Assembly: GCF_030028105.1 (NCBI RefSeq)
Contig: NC_092382.1
Coordinates: forward strand, 6,090,215 to 6,154,214
Direction: 5' to 3'
From: Mobula birostris
Taxonomy: Eukaryota
DNA length: 64,000 bases
The translations under genes were made by a program, and so were the position numbers. This document shows positions 12,951 to 56,770 of the stretch, in pieces. The notes below the pieces were generated by a model. It saw nothing but the letters and a program-made list of their open reading frames with translations, was not told the origin of the DNA and made no database searches. Position 1 is the stretch's first letter, and each line of letters opens with the position of its first letter.

Positions 12951-13004
12951 TAAAATTCACTGTGCACATGTTGTCACTGGTTAAAAGAATGAACAGTACA
13001 AGAT

Positions 13005-20562: not shown

Positions 20563-20568
20563 AATAAA
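20563..20568 (+). terminator. Candidate poly(A) signal of ZNF-A
   Basis: AATAAA about 200 bp after the last decayed finger. Confidence 0.5.
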
Positions 20569-28599: not shown

Positions 28600-31255
28600 C
28601 TGTTTTAAGTCATCATAACCTGAATCCCAACTTTGGCTATCATGGGTATCAGAATCATGCTGCACAGAACCGTCTGCATTGGCAGACTTTTTAGCTGTAC
28701 TTCGAGTTACTGTGCAGGAAGGATAAATGTTAAAATCCATCTGTGGGTCGTCAGTGGTTGGCTTAGTTGTCAACTGAACTGCAGGAACAACCTTACCATC
28801 TGCCAGGTCATTCCCTATCAGCAAAGTAACATCTTCCACCGGTAAACTGGAGCATAATCCGATCTTAACAGGTCCTGAAACCAACCCTGACTGTAAAGTT
28901 ACCTTGTGCAATGGAAAAGATACAATGCTGCCCCCAATGCCTTTAATAAGATTTACCTCACCAATGTCAGTCTCATCACCAAACTTTAGAATACTGTCTA
29001 ATATAAGTGACTGAGAAGCCCTAGTATCTCAAAGAATTTTCACTGGTACCGGGGTTGACCCTTCCATTACTAATATAAACCCATCTGACATAAAATGATC
29101 GAATCCCTTCTTAACTCATTCAGACCTCTCAGTCCTTAACTGAGCCTCAACAGAATGTTCAGAACCCTGTGGGTTTATAGGTGCTTCAACATACTGATCA
29201 CAGGCATGTGGGACTGCCTCCTTTTCCTTTTTCTTCTTCAGGACAGGACAATTAGCCATCATATGACCAGCTTTCTTACAATAGTAACAAGAAAGACCAG
29301 AATATTTCTCCTTCAACTGCTTCCCTTCATCCTCACTCTTGTCACTAAACCCAACTTCAATTTCTGGTTTACCCTGGTTATCCCTGCTACTCCTTTGGAA
29401 GCTCTTATTCTGGGTAAACTTAACCTTATGAGTTAAAGCAAACACATCTGCTAATCTAGCAGACTCCTGCAAAGTGGCAGCATCCTTTTCATTTAAATAC
29501 GTCTTTATGTCATCAGGGATGCACCTCCTGAATTCTTCAGTTAAAACCAAATCTTTCAAGCTGTTAAAATCATCATTAACATTTTTATATGTGCACCAGC
29601 GGTCAAAACACACAAACTTCTCATAAGCAAATCCATATAAGTCTGGTTCACAGATTTCCTCAAATTTCTAAACTTTTGCCTGTATGCTTCTGGGACCAAC
29701 TCATAAGCACTGAGCACAGCCTGTTACACTATGTCATAATCAGCTGCTTCAACAACAGTCAAAGCAGAATAGGCTCGCTGAGCCTTCCCCTTAATTACAC
29801 TTTGTAAGAGAATGGGCCAACCCTCTTTTTGCCACTTTAAACTCAGAGCAACCTTCTCAAAATGCTGAAAGTATTTATCAACCTCTGCCTCATCAAATGG
29901 AGGTAGCAATTTAACTTTCCGACTGGCCTCAAACTTATCCCCAGAGTCTAACGCGAGACCCTTTTGCTGCAATCTCTCTATCTTTTCCAGCTCGAACAGC
30001 CTCTGTCTTTCTGCTTCTTCCCTGTTTTTCTGCCTCTTCTCTCTGTTTTACTGCCTCTCTAGCCTCAACCTGCCTCTGCCGTTCCACAGCCTCCATCTTT
30101 AATTTTTCTAACTTGTACGGGAGCCCAAGCTCACTAGGTTTACTTTCAGGAAACACCTCCAACTCCTCCACTTTAAACACACCCTCATATACATAATGTT
30201 CAGCTATTATCCTCTGCATCTGTGACCTCCTCATTGTCGATTTCACCTTCACAAGTTTTAACCTTTCAGCAATACTCAAAACGCAATCCTTCTGGTGTCC
30301 TTTAGTGCCTCAGAGGTTGGCGCTTCCAGACATCTATCAACATCCATTGCTTCTGCCACACAAATAAATCAAAAGGGATTTCACCAATGAAGTTGGTTAG
30401 TAATCTATACACCCCCAAATCTGTTCATATCCAGGATGCAGGCCCCAATTTTTTTATGAACCATAACGCTCTAGAAACGAACCAGCAGCAATAAACTACA
30501 CCTGGAGTCTGGTTTTGATGTTAAATCCACTATCTTTATTAGCATCTACTAACAATATAGTATTTTAAGCAAGATAAACAGAAGTTAACAGTGTTATGCG
30601 TACGTGTGTGTAAATATAACTCCCAAACTATTGAACTCGGGGGAAACAAAGCTTGGAGTCTTGAGATGGTGAACTATGAAAGTTCAGTTCAACCACAGAG
30701 CAGTTGAGGAGAGAGAGATATTTGTAATCCAGGGTAAATGTCGAGAGAAGGCAATAACGTGAATTCAAGTTTCCATGGTGGTAAAACGAGAGAACAGTCG
30801 CTGCAGATTTTATCCGTCATCGTTCCAAATCCATTTACGAATTATCACAGGAAGTGACTTGTCACAAGGGGTATCGTCTTCAAGTGAATTACCACACCAC
30901 ACCCAGGCAAGTGTTAACACATAGGTGGTCTTCATAGGATACCCCAAATCCGATCCACTCCTATGGATCAAATGAGGTGACAACCACACATTTGATGTTC
31001 GCTGAATCGATAATTAACCCACCCTTGTGGGCAGAGGAAAGTTCCAAACAGTGACCCTTGGCCACCAGTTCCCTTGTTTCGAACCTTCCATTTTTCCTCC
31101 TTCATCTCCATCTGACTCTGAGTATCTGTGTCCTCGGTTAAAACAAGCAGCGAGCGATGTAAACAAGCTGCAAGTCAGACTGATTTCCATTCTTAATCTC
31201 TCTCTCTCTCTTAAAATGACAGTCCACAGAAAATGAAACCTAGGGATTCATAACA
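28600..31255 (-). mobile_element. Gmr1-like Gypsy element copy A (5' LTR, PBS, gag, protease; 3'-truncated)
   Basis: LTR ~30452-31255 with TGTTATGAA termini; PBS-like TGGGGCCTGCATCCTGGAT at 30447-30429; gag with SCAN-like segment and CYYCKKAGHMMANC knuckle; collinear with copy B. Confidence 0.9.
30452..31255 (-). repeat. 5' LTR of Gypsy copy A
   Basis: Paralogous to ~47875-48687; minus-strand AATAAA at 30540-30535. Confidence 0.85.
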
Positions 31256-31493
31256 ATGGCCCAGTGTGAACTGACTGGTGTGCCAGTAGGTGGGATGACT
31301 GAGTGAATCTCTTCCCACAGTCTGAGCAGGTGAACGGCCTCTCCCCAGTGTGAACTCGCTGATGACTCTGTAGGTTGGATGAGTGAGTGAATCTCTTCCC
31401 ACATTCTGAGCAGGTGAACGGCCTCTCCCCAGTGCGAACTGACTGGTGTGCCAGTAGGTGGGATGACCGGGTGAATCTCTTACCACATTCTGT

Positions 31494-32882
31494 TCAGGTG
31501 AATGGCTTCTCCCCAGTGTGAACTCGCTGGTGTTTCTGCAGGGTGGACGAATCAGTGAACCTCTTCCCACAGACTGAGCAGTTGAACGGCTTCTCCCCAG
31601 TGTGAACTCGCTGATGTCTCTGTAGGTCGGATGACTGAGTGAATCTCTTCCCACATTCTGAGCAGGTGAACGGCCTCTCCCCAGTGTGAACTCGCTGGTG
31701 TTTCTGTAGGGTGGACAAATTAGTGAATCTCTTCCCACAGACTGAGCAGGAGAATGGCCTCTCCCGCGTGTGAGCTGACTGGTGTGCCAGCAGTCCGGAT
31801 GACCTATTGAATCTCTTCCCACATTCTGAGCAGGTGAACGGCTTCTCCCCAGTGTGAACTCGCTGATGACTGTGTAGGTTGGATGAGTAAGTGAATCTCT
31901 TCCCACATTCGGAGCAGGTGAACGGCTTCTCCCCAGTGTGAACTCGCTGGTGACTCTGTAGGTGGGATGAATCAGTGAATCTCTTCCCACATTCGGAGCA
32001 GGTGAACGGCTTCTCCCCAGTGTGAATTCGCTGATGACTCTGCAGATCGGATGACTGAGTGAATCTCTTCCCACAGACTGAGCAGGTGAACGGCTTCTCC
32101 CCAGTGTGAACTCGCTGATGTCTCTGTAGATCGGATGACCGAGTGAATCTCTTCCCACATTCTGAGCAGGTGAATGGCTTCTCCCCAGTGTGAACTTGCT
32201 GATGTCTCTGTAGGGTGGACGAATCAGTGAATCTCTTCCCACATTCTGAGCAGGCGAACGGCTTCTCCCCCGTGTGAACTCGCTGATGACTCTGTAGGCA
32301 GGATGACCAAGTGAATCTCTTCCCACATTCTGAGCAGGTGAACGGCCTCTGCCCCGTGTGAACTGACTGGTGTGCCAGTAGTCTGGATGACCTAGTGAAT
32401 CTCTTCCCACATTCTAAGCAGGGGAACGGCTTCTCCCCAGTGTGAACTTGCTGATGTCTCTGTAGGGTGAATGACTGAGTGAATCCCTTCCCACAGACTG
32501 AGCAGGTGAACGGCTTCTCCCCAGTGTGAACTCGCTGGTGACTCTGTAGGTGGGATGAATCAGTGAATCTCATGCCACATTCTGAGCAGGTGAACGGCTT
32601 CTCCCCAGAGTGAATTCGCTGGTGTTTCTGTAGGGTGGATGAATCAGTGAATCTCTTCCCACAGAATGAGCAGGTGAACGGCTTCTCCCCAGTGTGAACT
32701 CGCTGATGTCTCTGTAGGTCGGATGACTGAGTGAATCTCTTCCCACATTCTGAGCAGGTGAATGGCTTCTCCCCAGTGTGAATTCGCTGATGTCTCTGTA
32801 GGATGGATGAATCAGTGTATCTCTTCCCACAGACTGAGCAGGTGAATGGCTTCTCCCCAGTTTGAACTCGCTGGTGAGCCAT
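31494..32882 (-). CDS. C2H2 zinc-finger protein ZNF-B, 462 aa from the MAHQRV ATG, 16 intact fingers
   Basis: ORF 31494-33059 starts at TTG; the homologous ATG is at 32882; acceptor at 33290/33289. After the in-frame TGA there are one broken and two intact fingers up to the LTR at 31255. Confidence 0.88.
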
Positions 32883-33799
32883 TAGGTTAGATGACTGAGT
32901 GAATCCTTTTTCCTTTCCCAGAAATTCAGCAGATGACCAGCCTCTACCCAATGTGAACTGACTGGTGTGTCCGCAGGTGGGAAGACCGACTGAATCCTTT
33001 CTCACACACAGAACAGATGAATGGCCTTGCCCAGTGTGAACTTGCTGATATACCTTCAATTGAGATAACCGAGTGAATCCATTCCCACTATCTGAGCAGG
33101 TGAACGGCCTTTCCCTTGGAAAGTTATGGGCATGTCAGTCGGTCAGAAGACTGAGAGAATACCTTCCCACAGTCTGAACAGGAACGATGGTCGATCCCTT
33201 GCTCCAGTTCTTAAATATCTTGACAGGGACAGCAAAACTGGCGTGCCGTGTTTGAGATTGCTGGAGGCAAATTCCTTCTCGTTTTTAACCTGTAAAAAGA
33301 TTTACAAAATCCATCAATTGGTGTAGGACAACATTTCAGATGAGATTACTTGAGTTGCCAAGGTTTGATCTGATATCACACTGTTACAGTGAGGTTCAAC
33401 CCAAGTTGGACAGAGAAATCATCTTCTGCATGGGCACAGTGCTGGTATCTGGAGTGACCAGCAAATTCTCTGATGCTCTTCCTGTCTCTATAAGAATGGG
33501 GCATTTCTGCCATCTCCAATCTGTGACCTGGCTCAGTTTGACTCTCTCCATTGGTATTATTCCCTGTTCCTGCTGAGCCCCATGGATGCCTGGCCCCACA
33601 GTAACTGAAACACCCTCTCACAAATAGTCTTTCTTGACATGCATCTGGGATTTTCTTTTATGTATTATTAACTTAAAGTGCCACAGTTTTAACGCCATAT
33701 AAAAAATTCCTGCTGAGATGAATGGTTGGTCCACACAGCTGTTAAAAGGACTTGGAGTGAATTTTTGTATTATTTCAGGTTCTTGTCACAGTCACAGAA

Positions 33800-35085
33800 A
33801 ATTACAACACAGAAACAGGCCCTTTGGGCCATCTGGTTTGTGCTGAACTATTTAAACTGCCCACTTCCATACCCCTACCATCCATGTACCTATGCAAACC
33901 TCTTAAATGTTGAAATTGAGCTCGCATGCACCACTTGTGCTGGCTGCTCATTCCACACCCGGATGACCGTCTGTGTGAAGAAGTTTCCCCTCATGTGCGC
34001 CTAATATCTCACCTTTCACCCTTAACCCATGGCCTCTGGTTGTAGTACCGCCCAATCTCAGTAGAGAAAGCCAGCTTGCATTTACCCTATCTATACCCCT
34101 CTATCACAATCAAATCTCCCCTCGGTCTTCTACATTCTAAGGAATAAAGTCTTGACCTGCTCAATCTTTCCTTATAACCCAAGTCCTCCAGACCTGGCAA
34201 AATCCTTGTGAATCTTCTCTGAACTCTTTCAACCTCTTTTACATCTTCCTGTAGGTTGGTGACCAAAACCGCACACAATACTCCAAATTAGGCCTCACCA
34301 ATGTCTTGTACAAAGTCAACAGAACATCCATCTATTGTTGTCAGTACTTTGGTTCAAAAAGGCCAACGTGCCAAAATCTTTCTTTCCATCCCTATCTAAC
34401 TGTGACACCACTTTCAGTGAAATACAGACCTGTATTCTCAGATGCCTTTCTTCTACAGCAATCCTCAGTGCCCTAACATTCACTGTGTAAGACCTAGGTC
34501 CAACCAAAATGCAACACCTCACACTTGTCTCCATTAAATTCCATTTTGCATTTCTTATCCCATTATTCCAGCTGATCCAGATTGCACTGCAAGCCATGAT
34601 AGTCTTCCTTGCTGTTCACGACACCACTAATCTTGGTGTGATCCACAAATTTGCTGATCCAGTTAACCACACTATCAACCAGATTACTGATATAGATGAC
34701 ACACAATAACAGATACAGCACTGATCCCTGTGGCAAACCACTAGTCACAGGCCTCCAGTCAGAGAGGCAACCATGTGCTACCACACTCTGGCTTCTCCCA
34801 AAGACAGTGACTCACCCAATTTACTATCTCATCTTGAATGCTGAGTGACTGAACCTTCTTGACCAATCTCCCATATGAGACTTTGCCCAGTGCCTTGCTA
34901 AAGTCCATGTAGACAACATCCACTGCCTTGCCTTCAACCACTTTCCTCATAACCTCCTCAAGAGACTCTATAAGATTGGATAGACATGACCTACCGTGCA
35001 CAAAGCCATGCTGTCTATCCTTTATCAGTCCACACCTATCCAAATACTTACAGTATATATCCGGTTCCTGCACATACATTCCAAT
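33800..35085 (-). mobile_element. Degraded CR1 RT fragment in ZNF-B intron (paralog ~52650-54050)
   Basis: QHGFVHGRSCLSNL, YMDFSKA, GLPQGSVL motifs with frameshifts. Confidence 0.8.
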
Positions 35086-37251: not shown

Positions 37252-40200
37252 AGCAAAGGGACCAACAGGCTCCGGGACATCATCTTCTACCAGGCCATCA
37301 GACTGATTAATTCATGCTGATACAATTGTAAACTATGTTATATCGACTGTCCTATGTATAAACTATCTGTTATAAATTACTGTGAATTGCACTTTTAACA
37401 TTTAGATGGAGATGTAAAGATTTCTACTCCTCATGTATATGAAGGACGTATGTAATAAAGTCAATTCAATTCAATTCACCCTCTCCACTATCTGTTCTGT
37501 CATTCTGGCTCCCATTTCCCCTACAACTTATTTTAACCACACCCCCCCTCTCCCCACACTAGCACTAGCGAGCCTTACCACTGGGATATTAGTCCCCTCT
37601 TGTTCTGTTCCCCTCACTAACAAATCCCCTATCACCCCTTTGACTTTTCTCTGCCAGGTAATCTCAACAGTTTCTAAAGTGGTCCACCTGTTGTTGTGGG
37701 GGATGGCCACAAGAGTACTCTGCAATGGCTATTTAACCTCATTCCCCTTCCTGACTCTCACCCAGTTTCCTGCATCCTGCACCTTGGGTGTAACTCACCT
37801 CTCTTCATGTCATATCTATCACCCCCTCCAACTCCTGGATGATCCAGAATTCATCCATTTCAAGTTCCAACTCCTTAAACTGCAGGGTTACAAGCTGCAG
37901 CTGGATGCACATCTTGTACGTCATGGCATCAGGGACACCGGAGCTCTCCCCACCTTCCCACCAATCTCCCCTCAAATTTGCAATGACCAGTGTGCACATA
38001 AAGCTTGTATTATGCAATTTTCCCACATGTGCACAGTGAATTTTATATAGAGAGGTATTCATTTTAACAGCTATCAAATCACTGTCTATAAGAACTTTGA
38101 TCTCCTCTGGGTTTGTTTAAGTTCATCTACACTCTCACACAACCTAAGTTGCAGGCCTGTAACAGGTAATGATGGATTTTCTTGCCAGAGCTTTTGCACA
38201 CAGTCCATGTGTCATTTGCTTGCTAAATGACGCCTAAAAGTCAGATTTCCAAATATCACTCCACTTCTTCCCACTTGCAAATTCTCCAGCAACTTTTGCA
38301 TCACCACAATACACACAGGTAACACCAGTTTCTGTATTGTACATAAATATTTCCCCTGAACCCTCCCCCAGGTGACTGACGGTGGTGAACTCAGTGATGG
38401 CAATGCCAATGAATATGAAGGGAAGGGCAGTAGTCTGTCTCATTGGAGTCTGGCACATTTGTGATGTGAAAGCTACTTGTTGCCCAGGGCAAAGGTGTTT
38501 GATATCATTATGTACCCAGAGAGAGTGGGACAAAACATGTTCTCACGGGTAGAAAAGTCCAGAACAAGAGGGGGTGGAACAAGCAACAGACACAAAATGC
38601 TGGGGGAACTCAGCAGGCCAGGCAGCATCTATGGAAAAGAGTACTAATGCTGAGTTCCTCCAGCAATTTGTGTGTGTTGCTCGGATTTCCAGCATCTGCA
38701 GATTTTCTCTTGTTTGTGACTGGAGGCAGAACAAAGGTGATTTTCACAACAGCTGATGTAAAAGATTTTGTTCCCTTTCTCCGAGTTCCCGATCCTTGCA
38801 TTTAGACAGCTGGAGCTCAGCTCTGTCTGAGAAACCCATCGGTTCCCATTCCCTCATCAGCCGGAAGCTCCCCGGGGCCCGTGTACGGATGGTGGGGCTG
38901 AGAGAGAGGGAAGAGAGCAGGACTGTCCCGGGATTGCGGGTCACGGAGTCCGGAGTCACAGCAACTACCCGAAGTCGGTGTTGGAAACGCCGCCCGGTGA
39001 GACCCCCAACCCGGAGATCCCTTCTCACCTCAACCGATCATCCGGGGCCTTTTGTGCCCCGCGCGCTGGTGAGCTCGAGCTTGGTCGGTTTAACGGCTGG
39101 GCTACTGATCACGTGACCAGCCCCTCCCCCACCGCTGTCAACAGGGGAGTCACGCGCTGCGCTATTCCCATTGGTGCGAAGCAATGTCAATCACTGCTTC
39201 CAACCAATAGCGGAGGCGGACCAGCCGAGAGGGCGTTACCCCCGATGACTCCGTCTCCCGAACTTCCCGTCACGGCGGGACAACCGTCAAAGTAAATGTC
39301 CGCTTTCTGATTTATTTCCATTTCCCTCCGAGGGAAGTTGGGGCGTTTGTGAAGCGTCTCCTGCGGCCGGAGTCTGATGTGTCGCTGAGAGGTAGGAGGA
39401 GACCGCTCGGCCCGTCGGTTTGATGCCGGTTCCCCGGGGAGGGAGAGGATGAAGACGGGGAGAGAGGGGGCGGACAGGATGTTTGTCCCGGTGGGGACAG
39501 GAGGGGCTCATCTGTGGAAATGTCTGAGCCCACGGTGGTGGCGATTCACCACATTGGGGGGCAAACACCGGCAGACTGTTGCCCTGCGAGCGGGGCCGAT
39601 GGTCCGGGCAAAGTGACAATTATTTGTGTTTTGTTGAGACTGTACCGGGAATATGGTGTAAAATCCCGCTCCCCACACTAACACGGGTCACACAGACCAA
39701 AGAACAAACTGCCGGAGGAACTCAGTGGGTCGGGCAGCATCTGTGGAGGGAAATGGACCGTCAACATTTCGGGCCGAGACCCTCCCTCTGGACTGAGAGT
39801 GGACGGGAAATAGTCCGAGAAAAGAGGTGAGGGGTGGGGATGGGGCAAGAGCTGGGGAGTGAGAGGTGGATCCAGGTGAGGGGGAGGTGGGAAGGTGGAA
39901 ATAGTGACGGGGGTGGGAGGTGAGTGGTTGGGGCAACACGGGGCTGCAGAAGATGGAAATTAAATCCATAGAGGATTAACAAAGAGGTTAGAGAGTATTT
40001 GTTATAGAGAGTGCAATGAAGATTCACCAGACTGATCCCTGGAGTAGTGGGTCATCATATGAAGAAAGATCAAATGTGATAACCCTTTCATTTATAGAAT
40101 CGAGGACTGAGAGGTGAACACATTGAAATGCACAACATCATTACAGGCTGAACCAGGGATCCCAGTTTCTGAAAAAGGGGATGGACTGTCTGGGACTGAG

Positions 40201-40470: not shown

Positions 40471-42569
40471 GAATTGAGTGTTTACAAACATGGACGGATT
40501 TAAATGAAACCTGCACATTTCCGGTTTGGGTCTGAATTGTGTGTTGGACCGGGATGGGAATCGAGCCCGTGACTCTGTGACCTTGGGGTGGAGGGAAAGG
40601 GACAGGGACGATTTGGAGGGACGAAGTAAAAATGTATCTGGAGTAAATATGGAATAATGTGGGAAATGTGGCGGATGGGTCTGGCAGCATGTGAGGGGCG
40701 AAGAGCAGCAGAGTCACCGGTTCAGGTGGGAGACCCTCCACCAGCACATGATCCCGTTTCCTGTTCACGTTTTCCCACAGATCTGCAGCATCTGCCGGTC
40801 ACTGCTGGAGTGTACGTGTAACTTCATCTTTCGCCCGTTCAGACAAGGCAGTGAGATCCGGATCTGTCATGTCCTCTCGTTGTGGGTGGACAATGTTTTA
40901 TTCTGCAATATTTTCAGCATGTTTCCATATAACCACATAACAATTACAGCACAGAAACAGGCCATCTCGGCCCTTCTAGTCCGTGCCGAATGCTTACTCT
41001 CACCTTGTCCCAGGCCTCAGACCATAACCACTGGGCCGAGGCCTGGGACTAGGCCTCATTCCACTGTTTTTACCTGCTGAAGGGCAGCCAATGTTTCTGG
41101 GTGTCTGACCCATTCATATGAGAACTTAGCCTTTTGTATTTATCTGAGCTTTTCATAAATGTGTACAGTTTAGTTCAGCTTCACTCCAGAATTTCCAAAG
41201 CAACAACCCAGTCAGTCAAATAGTTCCACACAATTAAAGTAGTTTACAGTATTACATTTTAATTTTATTTTGTGTTACTTATATAATTTAACTATTTAAT
41301 ATGTATATTCTTATTTTAAATCAAAGGTAAAAATCTATTGTTATGAATTAAATTCTGTTGCTGCTGTAGAGACAACAAATTACATAAGATCAGCCAGTGC
41401 TATTAAACCTGATTCTGATAATTGGTCTGGGAGACCCACCACCGGTCACCTGATCCCAGTTACCGCAGATCGTAATGCGAGATTGAAGCCTTTTCTATTT
41501 ATTGGTGTTCATCAGTTCAGTTAACTTTTCCTCTGTGGTTCCAAAGCAGAAGCTCAGTCTGTCTAATATTTCCACACAATTAAAATGGGGACTTATCATG
41601 TACTGAGCTACAGCTGCAGAGAAAGTGCAGTGCAGATAGACATATGGGGCAGGGTCACGTCGAGTTACATTGTGAGGTCGAGTCCATTCTATTGGACTGG
41701 AGACCATTAATTTGGCTGACAACTGCAGACAGGAAGCTGTCCATGAACCTGGTGGTACGCGCTTTAAGACTTTTGCATCTCTTCCCCGATGGAGGTTTGG
41801 GTTTGCAGCAATAATGTCCAAAGTTGTGGGCATCTTTGAGTACAAGGCCTGCTTTCCCGAGGCAGGGGAAGTGTAGGAAGAGTCCATAGAGGGGAGGCTT
41901 GTTTCTATGATGTTTCCAGATGAGACCAAAGTTCTCTGCAGTTCCTTGCAGTCATGGGCAGAGCTTTAGCCATACGAAGTTGTGAAGTATCGAGAAGAAG
42001 CTCAGAGACCTCGGCCTTCACCCTGCCTTGTGTAGCTGGATCCTGGACTTCCTGTCAGATGGCTGGCAGGTGGTAAGAGAGGGATCCCTCACCTCTGTCT
42101 CTTTGACCCTCAGCACACATGCCCCACAGGCTTGAATCCTTGGCCCCCTCCTTTACTCTCTGTGCACCCATGACTTGTGTCGCCACCCACAGCTCCAATC
42201 TGTTAATTAAATTTGCTGACGACACTATATTGATTGGCCTAATCCCAAATAATAACTTTCAATTGATCAAATGCTTCCTGACAAGGCTCGGTCCAAACAG
42301 ACTTTTCACCCTTCTTCAGGAGATTAGCCAGAGGAAGAGCGATATCAGCAAAGTTCTTCCAGAACTTACGATAATATCCAACCATTCCCAGAAACCTTTC
42401 AAGAGCCTTCTTACCAGTCTGTCACAAAAACTGTGGGTCAACTGTCTAAGAAAAATAACAAGATGGCTTGAGTGGCAAAAATAGATTGAGGTGCTTTTAT
42501 TTACAAAAAGAGTGGAAAAACAAAAACTTGGATGTCCACATGAAAACAAGAATTTAAAAAAAAAAATAC

Positions 42570-42593
42570 TATATTATATATATATATATATAA

Positions 42594-42633
<40 letters not shown>
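42570..42633. repeat. (TA)n(CA)n microsatellite
   Basis: Direct reading. Confidence 0.95.
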
Positions 42634-42635
<2 letters not shown>

Positions 42636-44686
42636 CTTGCAATTGTCACCTGTCCGGTTAACAGCCACCCTCAGACTAAACAGAAAAAAAAACGACCCAA
42701 AGCCTTGGTAACCTGAGGCTTATAACTGCTAAGCCAATCTCCCTAGACTAACCAAAAGCTAATTAACTCAATTATCTTCCATTTCACACAATCTAAAACT
42801 CTACCACCAGTTCTCACAATAAACACATATACTTCATCACAGGATTCACCATTTCCCGGTTAAATAACTTGTATAAACCCCAAAACTTTACCACAAGATG
42901 AGTAATTAGGTAACATAACCCTTGTCCCAGGTAAAGATGGTATCCTCCACCATCGGCACACCTGTGCAGGTTGCTGCTGCCTCTATATAAGACAGCTCTA
43001 TGCAGCAGCTCTGTTTCAGACCCAGTGACTGTGGAGGAGAGAGACGTCAGATTATCATGACACTTCGGCAAAACACTTATTGGAAAGATGAATATGAATA
43101 AATTCACCTGAGATAATAAAACTGTGACATAGTGTGTTTCTTTTTTTCATACCTATTACTGCTGGGGATGAGTGTAAAATTGTGACTGTTGATTTATTGT
43201 GACGCGTGCACTCACCACAATAACAGAGGGAATAATGTGCGTGGATGACCCTTTGAGTGTTTTACTGAGTGTGCCATGAGATATCTGTAATCAGTGACGG
43301 GCCTTCATCACACAGTCGGAATAGGAACTTCAGAAATTGCCTGGATTTTGCCTGCACAGGAGCCAACTTGCCTTGACCTACAACACAGCCAAGACAGATC
43401 ACAGTGGCATGGCCAAATTCACTCTTAGCTAAGTCAACTGTAAGGTTGGCCCTGGAAAGCCTGTCAAACAGCTCTTCTACTACAGCTCTTCCCAAGTGTC
43501 ACTCCCTGTGACTAAGTCATCAATATAGGCATCTGTGTGTCCTAACTCTTGAACTGCAGAATCAATCATTCTCTGGAATGTTCCTGGAGCATATTTCATT
43601 CCAAATGGCGAAACATTATATTCATACAACCCAGAAGGTGTCACAAATGCAGAAATTTCTCTACCTCAGTCCGTCAATGGAACACACCAATACCCTTTCA
43701 ACAGATCAATCTTTGTAAGAAATTACCTTTTCCAACCTTATCAATGCAATCATCCACCCTAGGGATAGGATAGGCATCTGTTTTTGTTACTGCATTTACC
43801 TTCCTATAATTAGTGCAAAATCTAACACTACCATCAAGTTTGGGCACAATAACGCAGGGTGAGCTCCAATCTGATGTTGAACGCCTAATAATACCACTTT
43901 CAGCATATATTCAATTTCTTGCTCAGCCAATTTACACTTTTCTATATTCATGCGATATGGGTGTTGTTTAATCGGTTTGGCTTGACCCATATATACGTCA
44001 TGTACTGCAACCGTGGTTTGCTTGGGAACATTGGGAAATAAAACTTTAAACCTCAGAATTAATTCCTTCAGCTGTTGTTGTTGCTTTGGCTGCAGATGAG
44101 CCAACTTGTTGTCCACGTTTTTGAGAACAACCGAGTTCATTAGCCTAACTGGGACCATGTTTGGCTTGTGAAAAGTCTCAGACGAGTCAATTGTTTCATT
44201 CTCAGGGCTGTCAGATTTATATGTTTGACAACACTCACCGATGGTGCCTGCTTGGCAGAATAAGGCTTTATCATATTGATGTGTACCACCTGTGTTAGTT
44301 TACGTCAGTCGTGTGTTTTAATAACATAATTCACATCATTAATTTGAGAGACTATTTCATACAGTCCATTGAATTTCACTTGAAGTAGAATCATCAACAT
44401 TGGAGATAAGGCAAGCACATTATCCCCCACCTAGTATTTTCTTTTGTTTTGGTCCGCTTAACAAACCAACACTTCACTTTGTTTTGAGAAATCTTTAAGT
44501 TTTGTCTCGCTAGACTACAGGCCTGGTAGAGTTTATTTTTGAACTTCAAAACATAGTCTAACAAGTTAACATATACATCCCCATCAATCCACTGTTCCTT
44601 TAACAAGGTCAAAGGTCCCCTCACTCTATGACCAAATACAAGTTCAAATGGGCTAAAGCCCAGTGATTCCTGTACCAACTCTCTTA

Positions 44687-45148
44687 AGCCTGATTTATAC
44701 TTGTGCGTCAAGTGTACACCATAGGCACTATGTACCCTACGCCGCAGGGTAACGTGCACCTCTTCAAAAAAGTAACTCACGCGTCGCGGCGATGCAGACC
44801 GCAACAACTGTGATTGGTTCGCTTGGTAGCATTGCATTTCCGGTTGCTTTTCTCCACCATGTCTGTACACTGATGCAAAATAAATGGTTGGAGACAATGA
44901 ACCAAATCGTCAAATCTACCTGCCGACATCCAAAAATATTTGAAATGCATTTACTCGTCCATGTCTCTCATGATGAAGCTCAACAGTGTCAGAGAAACCC
45001 CACCGCCAACTTGCGTTTTGGTGGTGAAGTGCAGAGCGATGCAGACACAACTACGCATGCTTGCTGCGGCGTAGGGCTACACAAAAATTAAATCAGGCCT
45101 ATGGTGTAGGATACGGCGTATCCCGAATGCACAAGTATAAATCAGCCT
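44687..45148. mobile_element. PIF/Harbinger-type MITE inserted in the integrase
   Basis: ~20-bp TIRs AG(C/G)CTGATTTATACTTGTGC; TTA duplicated at 44684-44686 and 45149-45151; removing it restores LLFTVRELVQESLGFSPFEL. Confidence 0.9.
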
Positions 45149-47874
45149 TTACGGTGAACAAAAGCAAATGTATTCCTTCATCCCATTTTTTTCCATTTTC
45201 AACACAGTATGTCTTAATCATTGTTTTGACGGTAGAATGAAATCTTTCTAAAGCCCCTTGTGATTCCGGATGGTACGCAGACGATGTAATTTGCTTAGCT
45301 CCCAGTTCATAAACTACCTGCTGGAATAATCCATTTGTAAAATTACTTCCTTGATCAGACTGGATTTCTTCATGCAAACCAAATAAAGTAAAAAACTTGT
45401 TAAGAGCCTTTGTCACAGTTTTAGCTTTAATATTTCTGAGAGGTATTGCCTCTGGGAATCTGGATGCAGTACACATAATAGTTAGTAAATACTGATTAGT
45501 CTTTGGGAATGGGCCAACACAATCCACTATAAATTTGGAACAGGGTTCTTCGAATGCAGGTATAGGCCGGAGTGGGGTCACTGGGGTGACCTGATTAGGT
45601 TTACCCACAACTTGACAAGTGTGACAGGATCTGCAAAAGGTCACAACATCTTTCCTCAAATTAGGCCAGAAAAATTCTCTCATAATCCTGTTTACAGTTT
45701 TATTCTCTCCAAAATGGCCACCTAAGGGCATAGTGTGGGCCAAAGTTAAAATTTCAGTCCTATAAACTTTAGGAACTACAACTTGGTGAATAATTGTCCA
45801 TTCCTCACTCGCAGGTATAGCAGGTGGCCTCCACTTCCTCATTAACACTCCATCCTTGAGATAATACCCTACTGACATTTTCTTAATCTCATCATCTGAG
45901 AGAAATGTTTCTTATAAAGCTTCAATCTCAGGGTCTCGGTTCTGTTCTGCTATAAACTCCTTCCTAGACAGGGATAAATCTTTCTCATCAGACTTACTAC
46001 CTGAATCCTGTTGAAACAATGAAGGCTGAAAGGTCCCTGACAAGTCATCATAACCTGAATCCTGGTCAACCTGATTTTGGCTATCAGGGGTATCAGAATC
46101 ATGCTGCACAGAACTGTCTGCATTGGCATACTTTTTAGCCATACTTCGAGTTACTGCGATAAATGTTAAAATCCATCTGTGGGTCGTCAGTGGTTGGCTT
46201 AGTTGTCAACTGCACTGCAGGAACAACATTACCATCTGCCAGGTCATTCCCTGACAGCAAAGTAACATCTTCCACTGGTAAACTGGAGCATAATCCGATC
46301 TTAACAGGTCCCAAAACCAACCCTGACTGTAAAGTGACCTTGCGCAATGGCACGGAAACAATGCTGCCCCCAATGCCTTTAATAAGATTTACCTCACCTA
46401 TGTTAGTCTCATCACCAAACTTTAGAATGCTGTCTGATATAAGTGACTGAGAAGCCCCAGTATCTCGAAGAATTTTCACTGGTACCGGGGTTGACCCTTC
46501 CGTTACTAATACAAACCCATCTGACATAAAATGATGGAATCCCTACTTAACTCAGTCAGACCTCTCAGTCCTTAACTGAGCCTCAGCAGAATGTTCAGAA
46601 CCCTGTCGGTTTATAGGTGCTTCAACATACTGATCACAGGCATGTGGGACTGTCTCCTTTTCCTTTTTCTTCTTCAGGACAGAATAATTAGCCACCATAT
46701 GACCAGCTTTATTACAATAGTAACAAGGCAGACCAGAATATTTCTCCTTCAACTGCTTCCCTTCATCCTTAGTCTTGTCACTAGTCCCAGCTTTAATTTC
46801 TGGTTTACCCTGGTTATCCCTGCTACTCTTTTGGAAGCTCTTATTCTGGGTGAACTTAATGTTATGAGTTAAAGCAAACTTAACTGCTAATCTAGCAGAC
46901 TCCTGCAAAGTGGCAGCATCCTTTTCATTTAAATACATCTTTATGTCATCAGGGACACACATTTTGAATTCTTCAATTAAAACCAACTCTTTCAAGCTGT
47001 TAAAATCATCATTTACATTTTTATATGTGCACCAGCGGTCAAAACACACAAACTTCTCATAAGCAAATTCCATATAAGTCCGGTTCACAGATTTCCTCAA
47101 ATTTCTAAACTTTTGCCTGTATGCTTCTAGGACAAACTCATAAGCTTTGAGCACAGCCTGTTTCACCATGTCATAATCAGCTGCTTCATCAACTGTCAAA
47201 GCAGAATAGGCTTGCTGAGCCTTCCCCTTAATTACACTTTGTAAGAGAATAGGCCAACCCTCTTTTGGCCATTTTAAACCCTGAGCAAACTTCTCAAAAT
47301 GCTGTAAGTATTTATCAACCTCTGCCTCGTCAAATGGAGGCACCAATTTAACTTCCCGACTGGCCTCAAACTTATCACCAGAGTCTAACGCTAGACCCCT
47401 TTGCTGCAATCTCTCTATCTTTTCCAGCTCGAACAGCCTCTGTCTTTCTGCTTCCTCTCTGTTTTTCTGCGTCTTTAGTCTGAACCTGCCTCTGCCTTTC
47501 CACAGCCTCTATCTTTATTTTTTCTAACTTGTGCGGGAGCTCTAGCTCACTAGGTTTACTTTCAGGAAACACCTCCAACTCCTGCATTTTAAACACACCC
47601 TCAGATACATAATACTCAGCTATTTTCCTCTGCATCTGTGACCTCCTCATTGTCGATTTCACCTTCACAAGTTTTAACCTTTTAGCAATACTCAGCAACT
47701 CAATCCTTCTGGTGTCCTCTAACGCCTCAGAGGTTGGCGCTTCCAGACATCTATCAACATCCATTGCTGCTGATTTTCCAGACACAAATAAATCAAAAGG
47801 GATTTCTACAATGAAACCGATAACTGATCAATACGCCTCCAAATCTTTTCCTATATCGGATGCAGGCCCAAATT

Positions 47875-48687
47875 TTGACCCTGTAACACTTTAGAAATGA
47901 GTCAGTAGCAATAGACTACACCTAGAGTCTGTTTTTGATGTTAAATCCACTATCTTTATTAGTACCTACTAACAATATAGTAACTTAAGCAAGATAAACA
48001 AAAGTTAACAGTGTTATATGTATATATGTGGGTAAATATAACTCCCAAACTACTGAGCTCAGGGGAAACAAGGTTTGGAGTCTTGAGATGGTAAACTATG
48101 AAAGTCCAGTTCAACCATAGAATAGTTGAGGAGAGAGAGGTATTTGTAATCCAGGGTAAGTGTGGAGAGAAGTCAATAACGTTGAATTCCACAGCATACA
48201 TGGTGGTAAAACGAGAGAACAGTCACTGTAGATTTTATCCGTCGTCATTCCAAATCCACATACAAATTATCACCAGAAGGTACTTGTCACAAGAGGTATC
48301 GTCTTCAAGTGAATTTCCACACCACACCCAGGCAAGGGTTAACACATAAGTGGTCTTCACAGGATACCCCAAAATAGATCCACTCCTATGGATCAAACGA
48401 GGTGACAACCACACATTCAACGTATGCTGAATCAATAATTAACCCACCCTTGGGGGCATAGGAAAGTTCGAAACAGTGACCCTTGGCCAGTAGTTCTCTT
48501 GTTTTGAACCTTCCATTTTTCCTCCTTCATCTCTGTCTGACTCTGAGTGTCTGTGTCCTCGGTTAAAACTAAACAAGCTGTGAGTGATGTGAACAAGATG
48601 CAAGTCAGACTGATTTCCATTCTTAATCTCTCTCTCTCTCTCTCAAGATGACAGTCCACAGCAAATGAAATCTAGGGATTCATCACA
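47875..48687 (-). repeat. 5' LTR of Gypsy copy B
   Basis: Begins TGTGATGAATCCC; AATAAA at 47960-47955; PBS-like sequence at ~47871-47855. Confidence 0.85.
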
Positions 48688-51600
48688 ATGGCCGTTCCCC
48701 ATTGTGAACTGACTGGTGTGCCAGTAGGAGGGATGGCTGAGTGAATCCTTTCCCACATTCTGAGCAGGTGAACGGCTTCTCCCCAGTGTGAACTCGCTGA
48801 TGACTGTGTAGGTTGGATGACTGAGTGAATCTTTTCCCACAGACTGAGCAGGTAAACGGCTTCTCCCCAGTGTGAACTCGCTGATGTTTCTGTAGGGTGG
48901 ATGACTGAGTGAATCTTTTCCCACAGGCTAAGCAGGTGAATGGCTTCTCCCCAGTGTGAACTCGCTGATGATTCTGTAGGGTGGATGAGTGAGTGAATCT
49001 CTTCCCACAGACTGAGCAGGTGAACGGCCTCTCCCCAGTGTGAACTCGCTGATGTTTCTGTAGGGTGGATGACTGAGTGAATCTTTTCCCACAGGCTAAG
49101 CAGGTGAATGGCTTCTCCCCAGTGTGAACTCGCTGATGATTCTGTAGGGTGGATGAGTGAGTGAATCTCTTCCCACAGACTGAGCAGGTGAACGGCCTCT
49201 CCCCAGTGTGAACTCGCTGATGATTCTGTAGGGTGGATGACTGAGTGAATCTCTTCCCACAGACTGAGCAGGTGAACGGCTTCTCCCCAGTGTGACCTTG
49301 CTGGTGTGCCACTAGGTTGGATGACTCAGTGAATCTCTTCTCAGAGACTGAGCAGGTGAACAGCATCTCTCCAGTGTGAACTCGCTGGTGAGCCATTAGC
49401 TCAGACGAGCAAGTGAATCCCTTCCCACAGTCTGAGCAGGTGAATGGCCACTCCCCACTGTGAACTGACTGGTGTGCCAGCAGTCTGGATGACTGACTGA
49501 ATCCTTTCCCACATTCTAAGCAGGTGAAAGGCTTCTCCCCAGTGTGAACTCGCTGATGACTCTGTAGGCTGGATGACTGAGTGAATCTCTTCCCACATTC
49601 TGAGCAGGTGAATGGCTTCTCCCCAGTGTGAACTCGCTGATGATTCTGTCGGCTGGATGAATTAGTGAATCTCTTCCCACAGACTGAGCAGGTGAACGGC
49701 TTCTCCCCAGTGTGAACTCGCTGATGACTCTGTAGGCTGGATAACTGAGTGAATCCCTTCCCACATTCTGAGCAGGTGAACGGCTTCTCCCCAGTGTGAA
49801 CTCGCTGATGACTCTGTAGGTTGGATAACCGAGTGAATCTCTTCCCACAGACTGAGCAGGTGAATGGCTTCTCCCCAGTGTGGACTCGCTGATGTCTCTG
49901 TAGGCTGGATTGATCAGCGAATCTCTTCCCACAGACTGAGCAGGTGAACGGCTTCTCCCCAGTGTGAACTCGCTGATGTTTCTGCAGGGTGGATTGATCA
50001 GCGAATCTCTTCCCACAGACTGAGCAGGTGAAGGGCTTTTCGCCAGTGTGAACTCGCTGATGTCTCTGTAGGGTGGATGAATTAGTGAATCTCTTCCCAC
50101 AGACTGAGCAGGTGAATGGCTTCTCCCCAGTGTGAACTCGCTGATGACTGTGTAGGTTGGATGACTCAGTGAATCTCTTCCCACAGACTGAGCAGGTGAA
50201 TGGCTTCTCCCCAGTGTGGACTCGCTGATGTCTCTGTAGGCTGGATTGATCAGCGAATCTCTTCCCACAGACTGAGCAGGTGCACAGCTTCTCCCCAGTG
50301 TGAACTCGCTGATGTGCCAGTAGGTTGGATGACTGAGTGAATCCTTTCTCACATTCTGAGCTGGTGAATGGCTTCTCCCCAGTGTGAACTCGCTGATGAA
50401 TCTGTAGGTTGGATGACTGAGTGAATCTCTTCCCACAGACCGAGCAGGTGAACGGCTTCTCCCCAGTGTGACCTCGCTGATGTGCCACTGGGTTGGATGA
50501 CTCAGTGAATCTCTTCTCAGAGACTGAGCAGGTGAACAGCATCTCTCCAGTGTGAACTCGCTGGTGAGCCATTAGCTTAGATGAGCAAGTGAATCCCTTC
50601 CCACAGTCTGAGCAGGTGAACGGCCACTCCCCACTGTGAACTGACTGGTGTGCCAGCAGTTTGGATGACTGACTGAACCCTTTCCCACATTCTAAGCAGG
50701 TGAACGGCTTCTCCCCAGTGTGAACTCGCTGATGACTCTGTAGGCTGGATGACTGAGTGAATCTCTTCCCACATTCTGAGCAGGTGAATGGCTTCTCCCC
50801 AGTGTGAACTCGCTGATGAATCTGTAGGCTGGATGAATTAGTGAATCCCTTCCTACAGACTGAGCAGGTGAACGGCTTCTCCCCAGTGTGAACTCGCTGA
50901 TGACTCTGCAGGTTGGATGACTGAGTGAATCTCTTCCCACATTCTGAGCAGGTGAACGGCTTCTCCCCAGTGTGAATTCGCTGATGATTCTGTAGGCTGG
51001 ATGAATTAGTGAATCTCTTCCCACAGACTGAGCAGGTGAACGGCTTCTCCCCGGTGTGGACTCGCTGATGTCTCTGTAGGCTGGATGACTCAGTGAATCT
51101 CTTCCCACATTCTGAGCATGTGAACGGCTTCTCCCCAGTGTGAACTCGCTGATGTTTCTGTAGGGTGGATTTATCAGTGAATCTCTTCCCACAGACTGAG
51201 CAGGTGAATGGCTTCTCGCCAGTGTGAACTCGCTGATGACTCTGTAGGGTGGATGAATTAGTGAATCTCTTCCCACAGACTGAGCAGGTGAACGGCTTCT
51301 CCCCAGTGTGAACCCGCTGATGACTCTGTAGGTTGGATGACTCAGTGAATCTCTTCCCACAGACTGAGCAGGTGAATGGCTTCTCCCCAGTGTGGACTCG
51401 CTGATGTCTCTGTACGCTGGATGACTCAGTGAATCTCTTCCCACATTCTGAGCAGGTGAACGGCTTCTCCCCAGTGTGAACTCGCTGATGTTTCTGTAGG
51501 GTGGATTGATCAGCGAATCTCTTCCCACAGACTGAGCAGGTCATTGGCTTCTCGCCAGTGTGAACTCGCTGATGTCTCTGTAGGGTGGATGAATTAGTGA

Positions 51601-51748
51601 ATCTCTTCCCACAGACTGAGCAGGCGAACGGCTTCTCCCCAGTGTGAACTCGCTGATGTGCCAGTAGGTTGGATGACTGAGTGAATCTCTTCCCACAGAC
51701 TGAGCAGGTGAATGGCTTCTCCCCGGTGTGAACTCGCTGGTGAGCCAT
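48683..51748 (-). CDS. C2H2 zinc-finger protein ZNF-C, 1021 aa, 36 repeats (33 with intact C2H2)
   Basis: 13 + 36x28 aa; acceptor at 52156/52155; stop codon lies inside the first bases of the LTR. Confidence 0.93.
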
Positions 51749-52649
51749 TAGGTCAGATGACCGAGTGAATCCTTCCCCACAAGTTCAGCAGATGACCAGC
51801 CTCTGCCCATTGTGAATTGCCTGGTGTGTCCACAGGTGGGATAACCGACTGAATCCCTTCTCACACACAGATCAGATGAATGGCCTTGTCCAGTGTGAAC
51901 TTGCTGATGTACCTTCAATTGAGATAACCAAGTGAATCCACTCCCACTGTCTGAGCAGGTGAACGGCCTTTCCCCTGTGCAAAATGACGGGCATGCTAGT
52001 CAGTCAGATGACCAAGTGAATCCCTCCCCACAGTCTGAGCTGGAAGGATGGTTGATTGAAATCCTTGCTCCACTTTTCAAACATCTGGACAGAGACAGCA
52101 AAACTGGCGTACCGGGTTTGAGATCCTAGGAGCTAAATTCCATCTCGTTTTTAACCTGTAAAAAGATTTACAAAATCCATCATTGGGTTAGGACCAAATT
52201 TCAGATGAGATTACTTGAGTTCTCAAGGTTTGATCTGGTTGCAATGAGGTTCAACCCAAGTTGGAGAGAGAAATCATCTTCTGACTGGGCACAGTGCTGG
52301 TATCTGGAATGGCCATCAATTCCTTGATGCTCTTCCTGTCTCTATAAGAATGGGGCATTTCTGCCATCTCCAATCTGTGACCTGGCTCAGTTTGCCTCTC
52401 TCCATTTGTATTATTCCCTGTTCCTGCTGAGCAGCATGGGTGCCTGGGCCCACAGTCACTGAAACAGTATCAGGCAAATTGTCTTTCTTGTCATGCATCT
52501 GGGATTTTCTTTTATGCATTATTAACTTTAAAGTGCCACAGATTTAACACCATATACAAAATTCCTGCTGAGATGAATGGTTGGTCTGCACAACTGTTAA
52601 AAGAACTTAGAGGGAATTTTTGTATTATTTCAGGTTCTTGTCACAGTCA

Positions 52650-55600
52650 TCGAAAATTACAATACAGAAACAGGCCCTTTGGGCCATCTGGTTTGTGCTG
52701 AACTATTTAATCTGCCCACTCCCATACCCCTACCATCCAGGTACCAAACAAACCTCTTAAATGTTGAAATTGAGCTCGCATGCACCACTTGTGCTGGCTG
52801 CTCATTCCACACCCGGATGACCATCTGTGTGAAGAAGTTTCCCCTCATGTTCTCCTTAACGTTTCACCTTTTACCCTTAACCCATGGCCTCTGATTGTCG
52901 TCCCACCCCATCTCAGTGGTAAAAGCCAGCTTGCATTTACCCTATCTATACCCCTCATAATAGTGGTATACCTCCATCAAATCTCCCCTCAATCTTTTAT
53001 GTTCCAAGGAATAAAGTCCGGACTTGTTCAATCTTTCCTAATAACCGAAGTCCTCCAGACCTGGCAACATCCTTGTGAATTTTCTCTGAACTCTTTCAAC
53101 CTCTTTTACAACCTTCATGTAGGTAGGTGACCAAAACTGCACACAATACTCCAAATTAGACCTCACCAATGTCTTCCACAAGTCAATATAATGTCTATCT
53201 ATTGTTGTCAGTACTTTGGTTCATGAAGGACAATGGGCCAAAATCCTTCTTTCCATCACATCTATGACACCATTTTCAATAGACAATAGGTGCAGGAGTA
53301 GGCCATTTGGCCCTTCGAGCTGGTACTGCCATTTACTGTGATCATGGCTGTTCATCCACAATCAGTACCCGGTTCCTGCCTTCTCCCCATATCCCTTGAC
53401 TCTGCTATCATTAAGAGATCTCTCCAACTCCTTCTTAAAAGCATTCAGAGAATTTTCCTCCACTGCCTTCTGAGGCAGAGCATTCCACAGATTCACAACT
53501 CTCTGGGTGAAAAAGTTTTTCCTCAACTCCATTCGAAATGACCTACCCCTTATTCTCAAATTGTGGCCTCTGGTTCTGGACTCCCCCAACATCAGTGAAT
53601 TGAGGACTTGTATTCCCACATCCCTTTCTTCTACAACACTCCTCAGTGCTCTACCAGTCACGGTGAAAGAACTCCCTTGGTAGGTCATACCAAAGTGCAA
53701 CACCTCACACTTGTCTGCATTAAATTCCATTTTCCATTTCTCAAACCATTTTCCCAGTTGGTCCAGATCGCACAGCAGCCATGATAGTCTTCCTCATTGT
53801 TCACTACACCACCAATCTTGCTGTCAGCTACAAATTTGCTGATCCAGTTAACCACACTATCATCCAAATTACTGATATAGATGACAAACAACAACAGATC
53901 CAGCACTGATCCCTGTGGCACACCACTAGTCACAGGCCTCCAGTCAGAGAGGCAACCATCTGCTACCACACAGCGGCTTCTCCCAAAGACAGTGTCTCAT
54001 CCAATTTACTATCTCATCTGGAATGCTGAGTGACTGAACCTTCTTGATCCACCTCTCATATTCCACCTCTGTAACCTGTACAGGGTCGAGGAATTTAATG
54101 CTGCTTTGCCTCTCTTCTATAGACTCTGCGTTCATCTCCTGAGCAAAAAATATCTCCCACATCTATTTTGTCTCCTCATATGGATTACCATTCTGATCTT
54201 GCAGAGGATTAATTTTTTCCCTTGCAATCTTTTCACACTCAACATATCTGCAGAATCCATGAGGATTCTCCTTGACCTTGTCTGCTGGGGCAACCTCATG
54301 CCTTCTTTGTCTTTCATAAGTGTTCACTTGAATTCCCTGTATTTCATAATTACCCATTTGTTCCGATCTGCCTGTACCTGGTATGCACCTCCTTTTTATT
54401 GATCTGGGAGATGAAAGCCAAAGGGGTGATAGAACTGCATGGTGTGGGGTGGGGTTGGGGGGGGGGGGTTTAAACTAAAGTTGCAGGGGGAATGGGAGCC
54501 TGAATAACAGAACAGATAGTGCAGGGTTTGCGGCAACATTTGTTGTTCAGACCTCAGACAAAGTCAGGAATGAAAGACGTTGAGCATGGTGCAGTGAATA
54601 TGCTGAGCCCTGTATATATCGATACAAGCAGTAGCATAGGAAAGGCAGATGTGTTCAGGGCATGGATCAACCCCCGGAATTATGACACTAGGATCTGGCA
54701 ACTGTGGCCTGGGACAGGCTGCTTTATGGCAAAGGTGTGCTTGGTAAATTGAGGCCTTCAAAGCGAAATTTTGAAAGTACAAAGCGGGTATGTGCTTCTC
54801 AGAATAAAAGGTGAGGATAGAAACTGTATGGAACCTTGGTTTTCAAGAGATATCGAGACCCTGGTGAAGCACAAAATGGAGTTGCAGAACAGGGATGGGC
54901 AGGTAGGTTCTTGTGGATTAGAAGAAATGCAAGAGAACACATAAGAAATAAATCAGGACGGCTAAATGAAGGCATGAGATTGCCCTCACAGAAAAGATGA
55001 AGGATAATCCTCAGGGATTCTGGAGATAGATTAAAAGCAAAAGGATTGCAAGGCACAAAGTTGGTCCTCTGGAAGACCGGAATGGCAATCCATGTGTGGA
55101 ACCAAAGCAAACGGGGGAGATCTTAAATATTCTTTTCATCCCTATTTACTCAGATGGACACAGTGTCAATGAGAGTGTGGAAAAGCGGCATTAAAATCAT
55201 GGACCCGCACAGATTAAAGAAGAGGGTGGATAAATCTCCGGGGCATGACAAGGTGCTCCCTCAGTCCCCATGGGAGGCAAGTGCAGAAATCGTCGGGCCC
55301 CAGCAGAGATAATTAATTCATCCTTAGTGAAGGGAGAGTTATCAGAGGATTGTAGGATAGCCAAAGTTATTTCGCTGTTCAACATAGAACATGGAAATCT
55401 ACAGCATATTCCAGGCCATTCAGCCCACAATGTTGTGCCAACCATGAAATTTACTCTAGAAACTGCCTAGAATTTCCCTAGCACATGGACCTCTATGTTT
55501 CTAAGCTCCATGTACCTATCTAAGAGGCTGTTAAAAGACCCTATTGTATCTGCCTCGACCACCACTGCTGGCAGTGCATTCCACACACCCACCACTCTCT

Positions 55601-56289: not shown

Positions 56290-56770
56290 CTCTGCAGATT
56301 TTCTCTTTTTAGTGATTGGAGGCAGAACAAAGGTGATTTTCACAACAGCTGATGTAAAAGATTTTGTTCCCTTTCTCCGAGTTCCCGATCCTTGCATTTA
56401 GACAGCTGGAGCTCAGCTCTGTCTGAGAGACCCATCGGTTCCCATTCCCTCATCAGCCGGAAGCTCCCCGGGGCCCGTGTACGGATGGTGGGGCTGAGAG
56501 AGAGGGAAGAGAGCAGGACTGTCCCGGAAGTCACAACAATTATCCCTCAGTCGGTGTTGAATCCCCTCCCCAACAATCTCCCTGACACCCGGAGACTCGC
56601 TCCTACCTGCTGCAGGTCTTCTCAGGCCCACCGTGTACTGTGCGCATGCGTGATATTCGGCAACGTCAGCACCCTCACGCCTGCGCATTCGATCGGTGCT
56701 TCGGCGACGGCGAAGGCGAAATGATTAACGCAGGAATTTATGGGTAATCCCGGCGCCATTAAAAGTTCCT
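56290..56770 (-). promoter_or_regulatory. Putative promoter and 5' exons of ZNF-C
   Basis: 56290-56560 matches the exon-2 part of the promoter block. Upstream sequence is different and CpG-rich: donor CAG|GTAGGA at 56606, TGCGCATGCG (NRF1-like) at 56641, CGCCATT (YY1-like) at 56754. Confidence 0.6.

Follow-up and report, generated by a model that had tools for sequence, protein, structure and literature searches.

A sense-oriented Gmr1-like LTR as the probable message tail of tandem C2H2 zinc-finger genes in Mobula birostris

Where does a zinc-finger (ZNF) gene end when a retrotransposon lies in sense orientation directly behind its last finger? The question is raised by a window of 64,000 nt from Mobula birostris (the whole stretch of DNA analyzed here), in which three tandem C2H2 ZNF genes, ZNF-A, ZNF-B, and ZNF-C, are found amid LINE-like fragments (Table 1). 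Downstream of the ZNF-B and ZNF-C ORFs there is a sense LTR, and it holds the first poly(A) hexamer. A first-pass annotation of this DNA had claimed that the LTR gives the stop codon of two ZNF genes and that it has been co-opted as their 3' UTR and terminator. Here, we report how the three finger frames end, what the LTR belongs to, and how much of the arrangement chance alone would explain.

Table 1 Features of the ZNF-LTR locus (positions in the window)
Feature	Position	Strand	Remarks
ZNF-A	ORF 19151-20023; through AATAAA 19151..20568	+	10 fingers; own TGA 20021-20023; without LTR; comparison gene
Element B internal region	28607..30450	-	PBS-like motif, gag (ATG 30347), protease; broken, truncated before integrase
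5' LTR of element B	30451..31255	-	89% identical to LTR C; AATAAA at 30540
Three finger units behind ZNF-B stop	31256..31493	-	6-nt deletion just before junction
ZNF-B ORF	31494..32882	-	462 codons; 16 fingers; own TGA 31496-31494
Element C internal region	42248..47874	-	PBS-like motif, gag, protease, integrase, RT, start of RNase H
5' LTR of element C	47875..48687	-	bases 3-5 are the ZNF-C stop; candidate 3' UTR
AATAAA in LTR C	47955..47960	-	about 85 nt from LTR 3' end; G/T-rich stretch downstream; candidate poly(A) signal
ZNF-C ORF	48683..51748	-	1,021 codons from first ATG (MAHQ); 33 canonical C2H2 fingers
5' part of ZNF-C last exon	51749..52155	-	decayed fingers; stops before ORF; presumed splicing
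Putative ZNF-C promoter/non-coding first exon	56291..56740	-	GC-rich; donor-like site; predicted

The LTR turns out to give the stop of one ZNF gene only, ZNF-C. Its frame ends CGG CCA T/TG (the slash marks the junction) followed by TGA at 48685-48683, i.e., bases 3-5 of the LTR, exactly as first described, and both the last codon and the stop are supplied by the LTR. The finger frame of ZNF-B does run on as GGG CCA T/TG TTA TGA (31250-31248) inside its LTR, but the ORF has already been stopped by an in-frame TGA three fingers before the LTR, and the TGA within LTR B closes an untranslated finger frame. The upstream TGA replaces the first Cys of a finger that is also missing its last His; because the finger with the stop has also lost this residue, the codon fits a real and aged stop. 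A sequencing error at this TGA is disfavored, rather than rejected, by the second lesion in the same finger. ZNF-A keeps its own 3' end, as had been stated, with decayed fingers behind the TGA and an AATAAA at 20563; it also ends by a nonsense codon within the finger array. The minus-strand AATAAA hexamers at 47960 (C) and 30540 (B) were likewise found where they had been placed, 723 and 708 nt past the respective LTR TGAs, and each is the first AATAAA/ATTAAA after its LTR start.

Base 4 of LTR C differs from that of LTR B and creates the TGA at bases 3-5, while LTR B has its stop at bases 6-8. At position 48684 the B-type letter makes up 94-100% of the depth in four public runs; since this letter dominates, the exact stop of ZNF-C is copy-specific. 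Four of the 24 runs, none of which is on record as RNA, were aligned to 46000-48770 at 85% likeness: X1 is a DNA run, and X5, X8, and X10 are RNA by guess only, X5 and X8 coming from one study and X10 from a second organism. That C's letter at 48684 is absent in the RNA-guessed runs is uninformative on ZNF-C expression because the DNA run X1 is also without C letters at many sites.

We call the segment an LTR because of its TG start, the terminal inverted repeat of copy B, the AATAAA, the PBS-like motif, and its place before gag. The PBS-like motif just behind the 5' LTR is decayed; it may resemble a tRNA-Pro PBS. The termini of Metaviridae LTRs are given as TGTTRNR...YNYAACA in the accessible part of PMC3601003; the start of LTR B fits TGTTRNR and its 3' end is the near-complement, and LTR C deviates at base 4 and is missing 5 nt of its 3' end. 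In three runs, contigs with an uninterrupted finger array have loose ends that put the breakpoint at 48687. In the 64-kb window LTR C matches only LTR B, and no partner LTR, target-site duplication, or finger remnant was found within the window behind element B or C, both of which are truncated. A search of metagenome and viral contigs for the LTR-start motif gave 0 matches.

Gmr1-like elements are defined by an integrase that precedes RT (PMC3587641, accessible part). In element C the integrase (46157-44442) precedes RT (about 43900-43325) according to tblastn with three polyproteins, and Pfam rve and Integrase_H2C2 match the element. The gag of element C starts at ATG 47764 and contains a SCAN domain and a weak zinc knuckle; the SCAN match (PF02023) has E = 1.7e-9 in C, above the cut-off, and 8e-4 in B, below the cut-off. 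Gag identity is 44-57% to the 10 best database relatives, with 44-45% for the Mobula gag relatives. Its predicted domain order and SCAN-like capsid identify the element as Gmr1-like Ty3/gypsy, in broken form. Element C carries several frameshifts and stops as well as two nested insertions; it is truncated at ~42248 and without a 3' LTR. A solo LTR of another family (~43312-42418), with an apparent 5-bp target-site duplication, is apparently nested between RT and RNase H of element C, and a 460-bp element (44686-45149), whose terminal inverted repeats are imperfect and 38 nt long, is nested in the integrase, followed by a short integrase repeat.

Two further readings of the gag were rejected. 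A domesticated gag is contradicted by a broken gag and a dN/dS in the neutral range, and a gag-finger fusion by closed frames, with gag downstream of the ZNF-C fingers. If element C were spliced to the ZNF-B acceptor, a stop would be met in all three frames before the ATG of the finger ORF.

How much of the junction would any sense LTR provide? In both LTRs the three phases reach their first stop at codons 15, 5, and 1-2, i.e., within 15 codons in every phase, so a sense LTR in a reading frame brings a stop anyway. AATAAA is present in 34% of 2,000 shuffles of LTR C, and Ty3/gypsy (Metaviridae) LTRs typically carry, close to their 3' end, an AATAAA followed by G/T-rich sequence (PMC3601003, accessible part). 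The stop and AATAAA of B and C are thus not more than chance for a sense LTR, the two cases being one duplicated junction. Two independent co-options as a sign of selection were considered and rejected, one duplicated junction being simpler.

Of the proposed co-option as 3' UTR and terminator, the anatomy of ZNF-C stands, i.e., a sense LTR with the stop and the first poly(A) hexamer; the ZNF-B stop speaks against it, and co-option by selection gains no support, LTR divergence being equal to that of introns and the early TGA of ZNF-C a copy-specific base change. Between B and C, LTR divergence is 84/794 (10.6%) versus 157/1567 (10.0%) in pooled introns (p = 0.67); no purifying selection on the LTR is seen in this comparison of two copies, in which constraint on a short motif would be missed. 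The first-pass annotation had also suggested that small RNAs, for example, could regulate these mRNAs together with the transposon. We consider it very unlikely that the LTR 3' UTR was selected for such co-regulation. The LTR would be sense in the predicted mRNA, so antisense small RNAs could pair with it, and ZNFs and retroelements are described as co-evolving across animals (PMC10547256, accessible part); however, the LTR is as diverged as introns, there are nine perfect runs of at least 20 nt (LTR B versus C), the 30-nt run around AATAAA among them, and both element copies are broken.

The reading that we favor, with somewhat more confidence than doubt, is one insertion, duplication within the cluster, and an LTR that passively gives 3' UTR and poly(A) signal. 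A Gmr1-like Ty3/gypsy element would have inserted once, in sense, into the linker that follows one of the fingers and so truncated the array; duplication of the gene and the 5' LTR-gag block within the cluster would then have yielded B, C, and probably more paralogs. Transcripts leaving the finger array would run into LTR U3, encounter a stop after a few codons, and probably be cleaved at the LTR's own AATAAA ~0.7 kb on, with predicted tails of ~0.74 kb (C) and 0.97 kb (B). In ZNF-C a later base change would have moved the stop one codon forward, and in ZNF-B a nonsense change three fingers upstream would have taken over as the stop. We infer that B and C are expressed and that cleavage takes place at the LTR AATAAA; the LTR probably supplies the message tail of both ZNF-B and ZNF-C.

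An identical acceptor-like site opens all three last exons, at 18828 (A), 33289 (B), and 52155 (C). Each last exon starts with ~0.3-0.4 kb of paralogous decayed fingers (18828-19150, 33289-32883, and 52155-51749). Stops or frameshifts close this stretch, and in A, B, and C the long frame has its first ATG inside a finger. As far as the sequence goes, these ZNFs seem to be without an effector domain, with dead fingers serving as 5' UTR. The putative promoters of A, B, and C are GC-rich units found at 11-13 kb, 38-40 kb, and 56.3-56.7 kb, respectively. The putative promoter/first-exon units at 11027-13007 (+), 38025-39968 (-), and 61320-63262 (+) are 95-99% identical among ZNF-A, ZNF-B, and a fourth ZNF gene (D), which lies off the right window edge and is known here by this promoter unit; 237 bp (56291-56527) of the putative ZNF-C unit has 98% identity to the units of A, B, and D. 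In contrast, the finger exons of A and B are 78% identical and the introns of B and C 88-92%, which suggests that promoters have been swapped within the cluster or that gene conversion has acted there. The promoter-unit duplicates also repeat a short ORF fragment (12452-12925, 38234-38542, and 62745-63164). It presumably resembles the start of a hAT-type transposase; a Pfam scan of two of its copies found nothing. Searches with the ZNF proteins gave generic matches (best 64% identity); among the ZNF matches listed, 0 of 120 had C-terminal ends like the junction peptide, and a search with the degenerate N-terminal region of ZNF-B gave 0 of 7 candidates.

Was there one insertion or were there two? 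B and C are 86-87% identical over intron, exon, junction, and element (28607-34876 versus 46042-54061). GGCCAT precedes both junctions and is a rare linker form (2/20 linker sites in B and 2/30 in C, junction included). The last finger of ZNF-C is nearest to the last of ZNF-B (92% versus 85% for the next, n = 19); the last finger of ZNF-B is 93% identical to the first finger of ZNF-C and 92% to the last. One insertion followed by cluster duplication, with a presumed single origin, is the simplest reading, and B and C read as one duplicated block with the same junction and not as independent cases. LTR elements integrated before a duplication are reported to be copied along with ZNF blocks in mouse KZFP clusters (PMC12575710, accessible part).

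It may be asked instead whether the element family targets ZNF finger linkers, with independent insertions, alike in phase and orientation, into paralogs that had been duplicated before. We regard this as quite improbable, with observations on both sides. Between B and C, the divergence of the internal region is 128/1821 (7.0%), with 6.5% in gag and 5.8% in protease; this is lower than the LTR's (p = 0.003) and that of pooled introns (p = 0.002), but not than that of the nearest intron part (8.1%, p = 0.40). Transitions prevail more strongly in the LTR (transitions:transversions 59:25) than in the introns (74:83, p = 0.0007). A low internal divergence and a transition-rich LTR would favor targeting, but intron parts themselves are 8-12% diverged, and because promoter units are 95-99% identical versus 78% for exons, patchy divergence is normal in this cluster. 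The dN/dS of gag/protease, 0.67 over 497 codons, lies inside the range of neutral simulations (median 0.62-0.77) and is compatible with neutrality.

The same rare linker hexamer at both junctions would also follow from a sequence-specific integrase, and the match of the last ZNF-B finger to the first ZNF-C finger, as good as to the last, fits independent insertions too. Many distinct contigs are found at the LTR start, any flank included: 14 in the DNA run X1 and 11, 10, and 9 in X5, X8, and X10. Among the sites listed (40 of 282 rows) at which >=90% of the DNA-run depth is unlike C, B has C's letter at 1 of 28, and therefore B and C have almost no common history after leaving the majority type. 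These counts point toward targeting; the star pattern, however, equally follows from rapid duplication of the cassette, and no precedent for targeting was found in the literature as judged by title or abstract start. As to the flanks, none of the 24 loose ends listed, of 515, has a non-finger flank at the LTR start, a number too small to use.

The preferred reading, a single insertion with a passive LTR tail, must also be weighed against the view that the insertion disabled or truncated the genes, such that B and C are silent or decaying, or their transcripts end elsewhere, and the LTR is without a role. We judge this unlikely. The ZNF-B nonsense codon and the degenerate state of some ZNF-C fingers (33 canonical fingers among about 36 units) are in line with it; however, ZNF-A, without an LTR, also ends by a nonsense codon in the array, which makes the ZNF-B stop a normal ending here, and both genes have putative promoter units. 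The 1,021 codons of ZNF-C are without a stop or frameshift, next to broken gag/pol, where neutral simulation at 3.5-5% change gives a mean of 5-7 stops, leaves the frame open in 1/300 and 0/300 runs, and lets ~10 indels be expected. Please note that recent duplications inside the ZNF-C array make this open-frame test overstate selection. The context of the first ATG is modest, and other ATGs lie upstream of it. The array ends in a near-perfect two-finger tandem duplication at 48850-49230 (HSTN, QSTK, HSTN, QSTK), and longer internal blocks are also repeated, a sign of recent array turnover.

The public runs bear on both readings. Two of the 32 pieces listed, out of 5,144, bridge the junction, in favor of an LTR tail: 48561-48727 (X5) and 48555-48727 (X8), both from RNA-guessed runs, and one contig does not equal a single transcript. 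Relative to C, either contig has 13 changed letters and 7 gaps, compared with 11 and 13 for B; because of these differences from C, the bridging contigs are a third variant, neither B nor C, and the finger-LTR cassette probably has more paralogs. That no contig among the pieces listed is identical to B or C across the junction would suit disabled genes. Contigs of X5 and X8 have a 91-nt deletion (47904-47994) that removes the LTR AATAAA; its ends are not splice-type, and the DNA run X1 does not show it. Not every copy keeps AATAAA, which again leans to the disabling side. No splice-type ends were seen among the 11 skip joints listed (14 further joints exist).

Summed contig depth over 48046-48603 versus 46000-47952 is 9.2x (X5), 9.0x (X8), 4.9x (X10), and 1.0x (X1), with the drop at the AATAAA bin. 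We rejected this step as evidence: contig depth cannot rank gene parts, and 3' bias on element transcripts gives the same shape.

LTRs that give genes new ends are a known mechanism. In the accessible parts of the sources, host genes are described as being strongly terminated by sense LTRs (Lee et al. 2008, PMC2553571; Conley and Jordan 2012, PMC3517506), and 639 human poly(A) sites are counted as LTR-associated, with a plus-strand bias (PMC2553571). As in those host poly(A) sites, a sense LTR here lends its own, candidate poly(A) signal; unlike in the human and mouse surveys so far as accessible, the donor is Gmr1-like Ty3/gypsy, lies within a coding finger array, and also gives a stop (in ZNF-C only). 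Young mouse KZFP clusters (PMC12575710, accessible part) resemble this locus in that LTR elements multiplied with ZNF gene blocks, but here the ORFs start inside a finger, the last exon has no KRAB, and the element is the gene 3' end. With Gmr1-like retrotransposons (Goodwin and Poulter 2002, as cited in the accessible part of PMC3587641), the element shares the integrase before RT and the SCAN-like capsid in gag, whereas both copies here are broken and without a 3' LTR in the window.

The proposed birth of SCAN-ZNFs from Gmr1 gag (Emerson and Thomas 2011, as described in the accessible part of PMC4592553) likewise has a Gmr1-like insertion in a tandem ZNF gene, but here the order is fingers, LTR, gag, with gag behind stop and AATAAA and no gag-finger fusion frame. 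With gag located downstream of the stop, and a C2H2 finger present in 0 of the 120 long gag relatives among the matches listed, the locus is not a SCAN-ZNF precursor as described there. Titles and abstract starts, with subscription journals largely missing, mentioned neither this locus nor a gypsy element that targets ZNF genes; the supplements of PMC12575710 and PMC10547256 may hold comparable cases. The accessible parts of PMC10547256 and PMC4131045 have no bearing on the finger-LTR junction.

We give little credence to a Gmr1-like family that is site-specific for C2H2 linkers, repeatedly truncates ZNFs, and leaves LTR tails with transposon 3'-end and small-RNA signals, and equally little to such targeting being a present-day parallel to the meeting of Gmr1 and ZNF genes from which SCAN-ZNFs are proposed to stem. 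If linker targeting were true, an LTR element would be directed against a class of genes thought to repress elements of this kind, a situation for which the literature search gave no precedent, and the proposed route to SCAN-ZNFs would become testable in a living genome. If the single-insertion reading is true, the locus would be a clear non-mammalian case in which a retrotransposon re-ends a tandem ZNF gene, is multiplied with it, and founds a subfamily with a common LTR tail, and it would be useful for annotation and for the study of ZNF-TE co-evolution.
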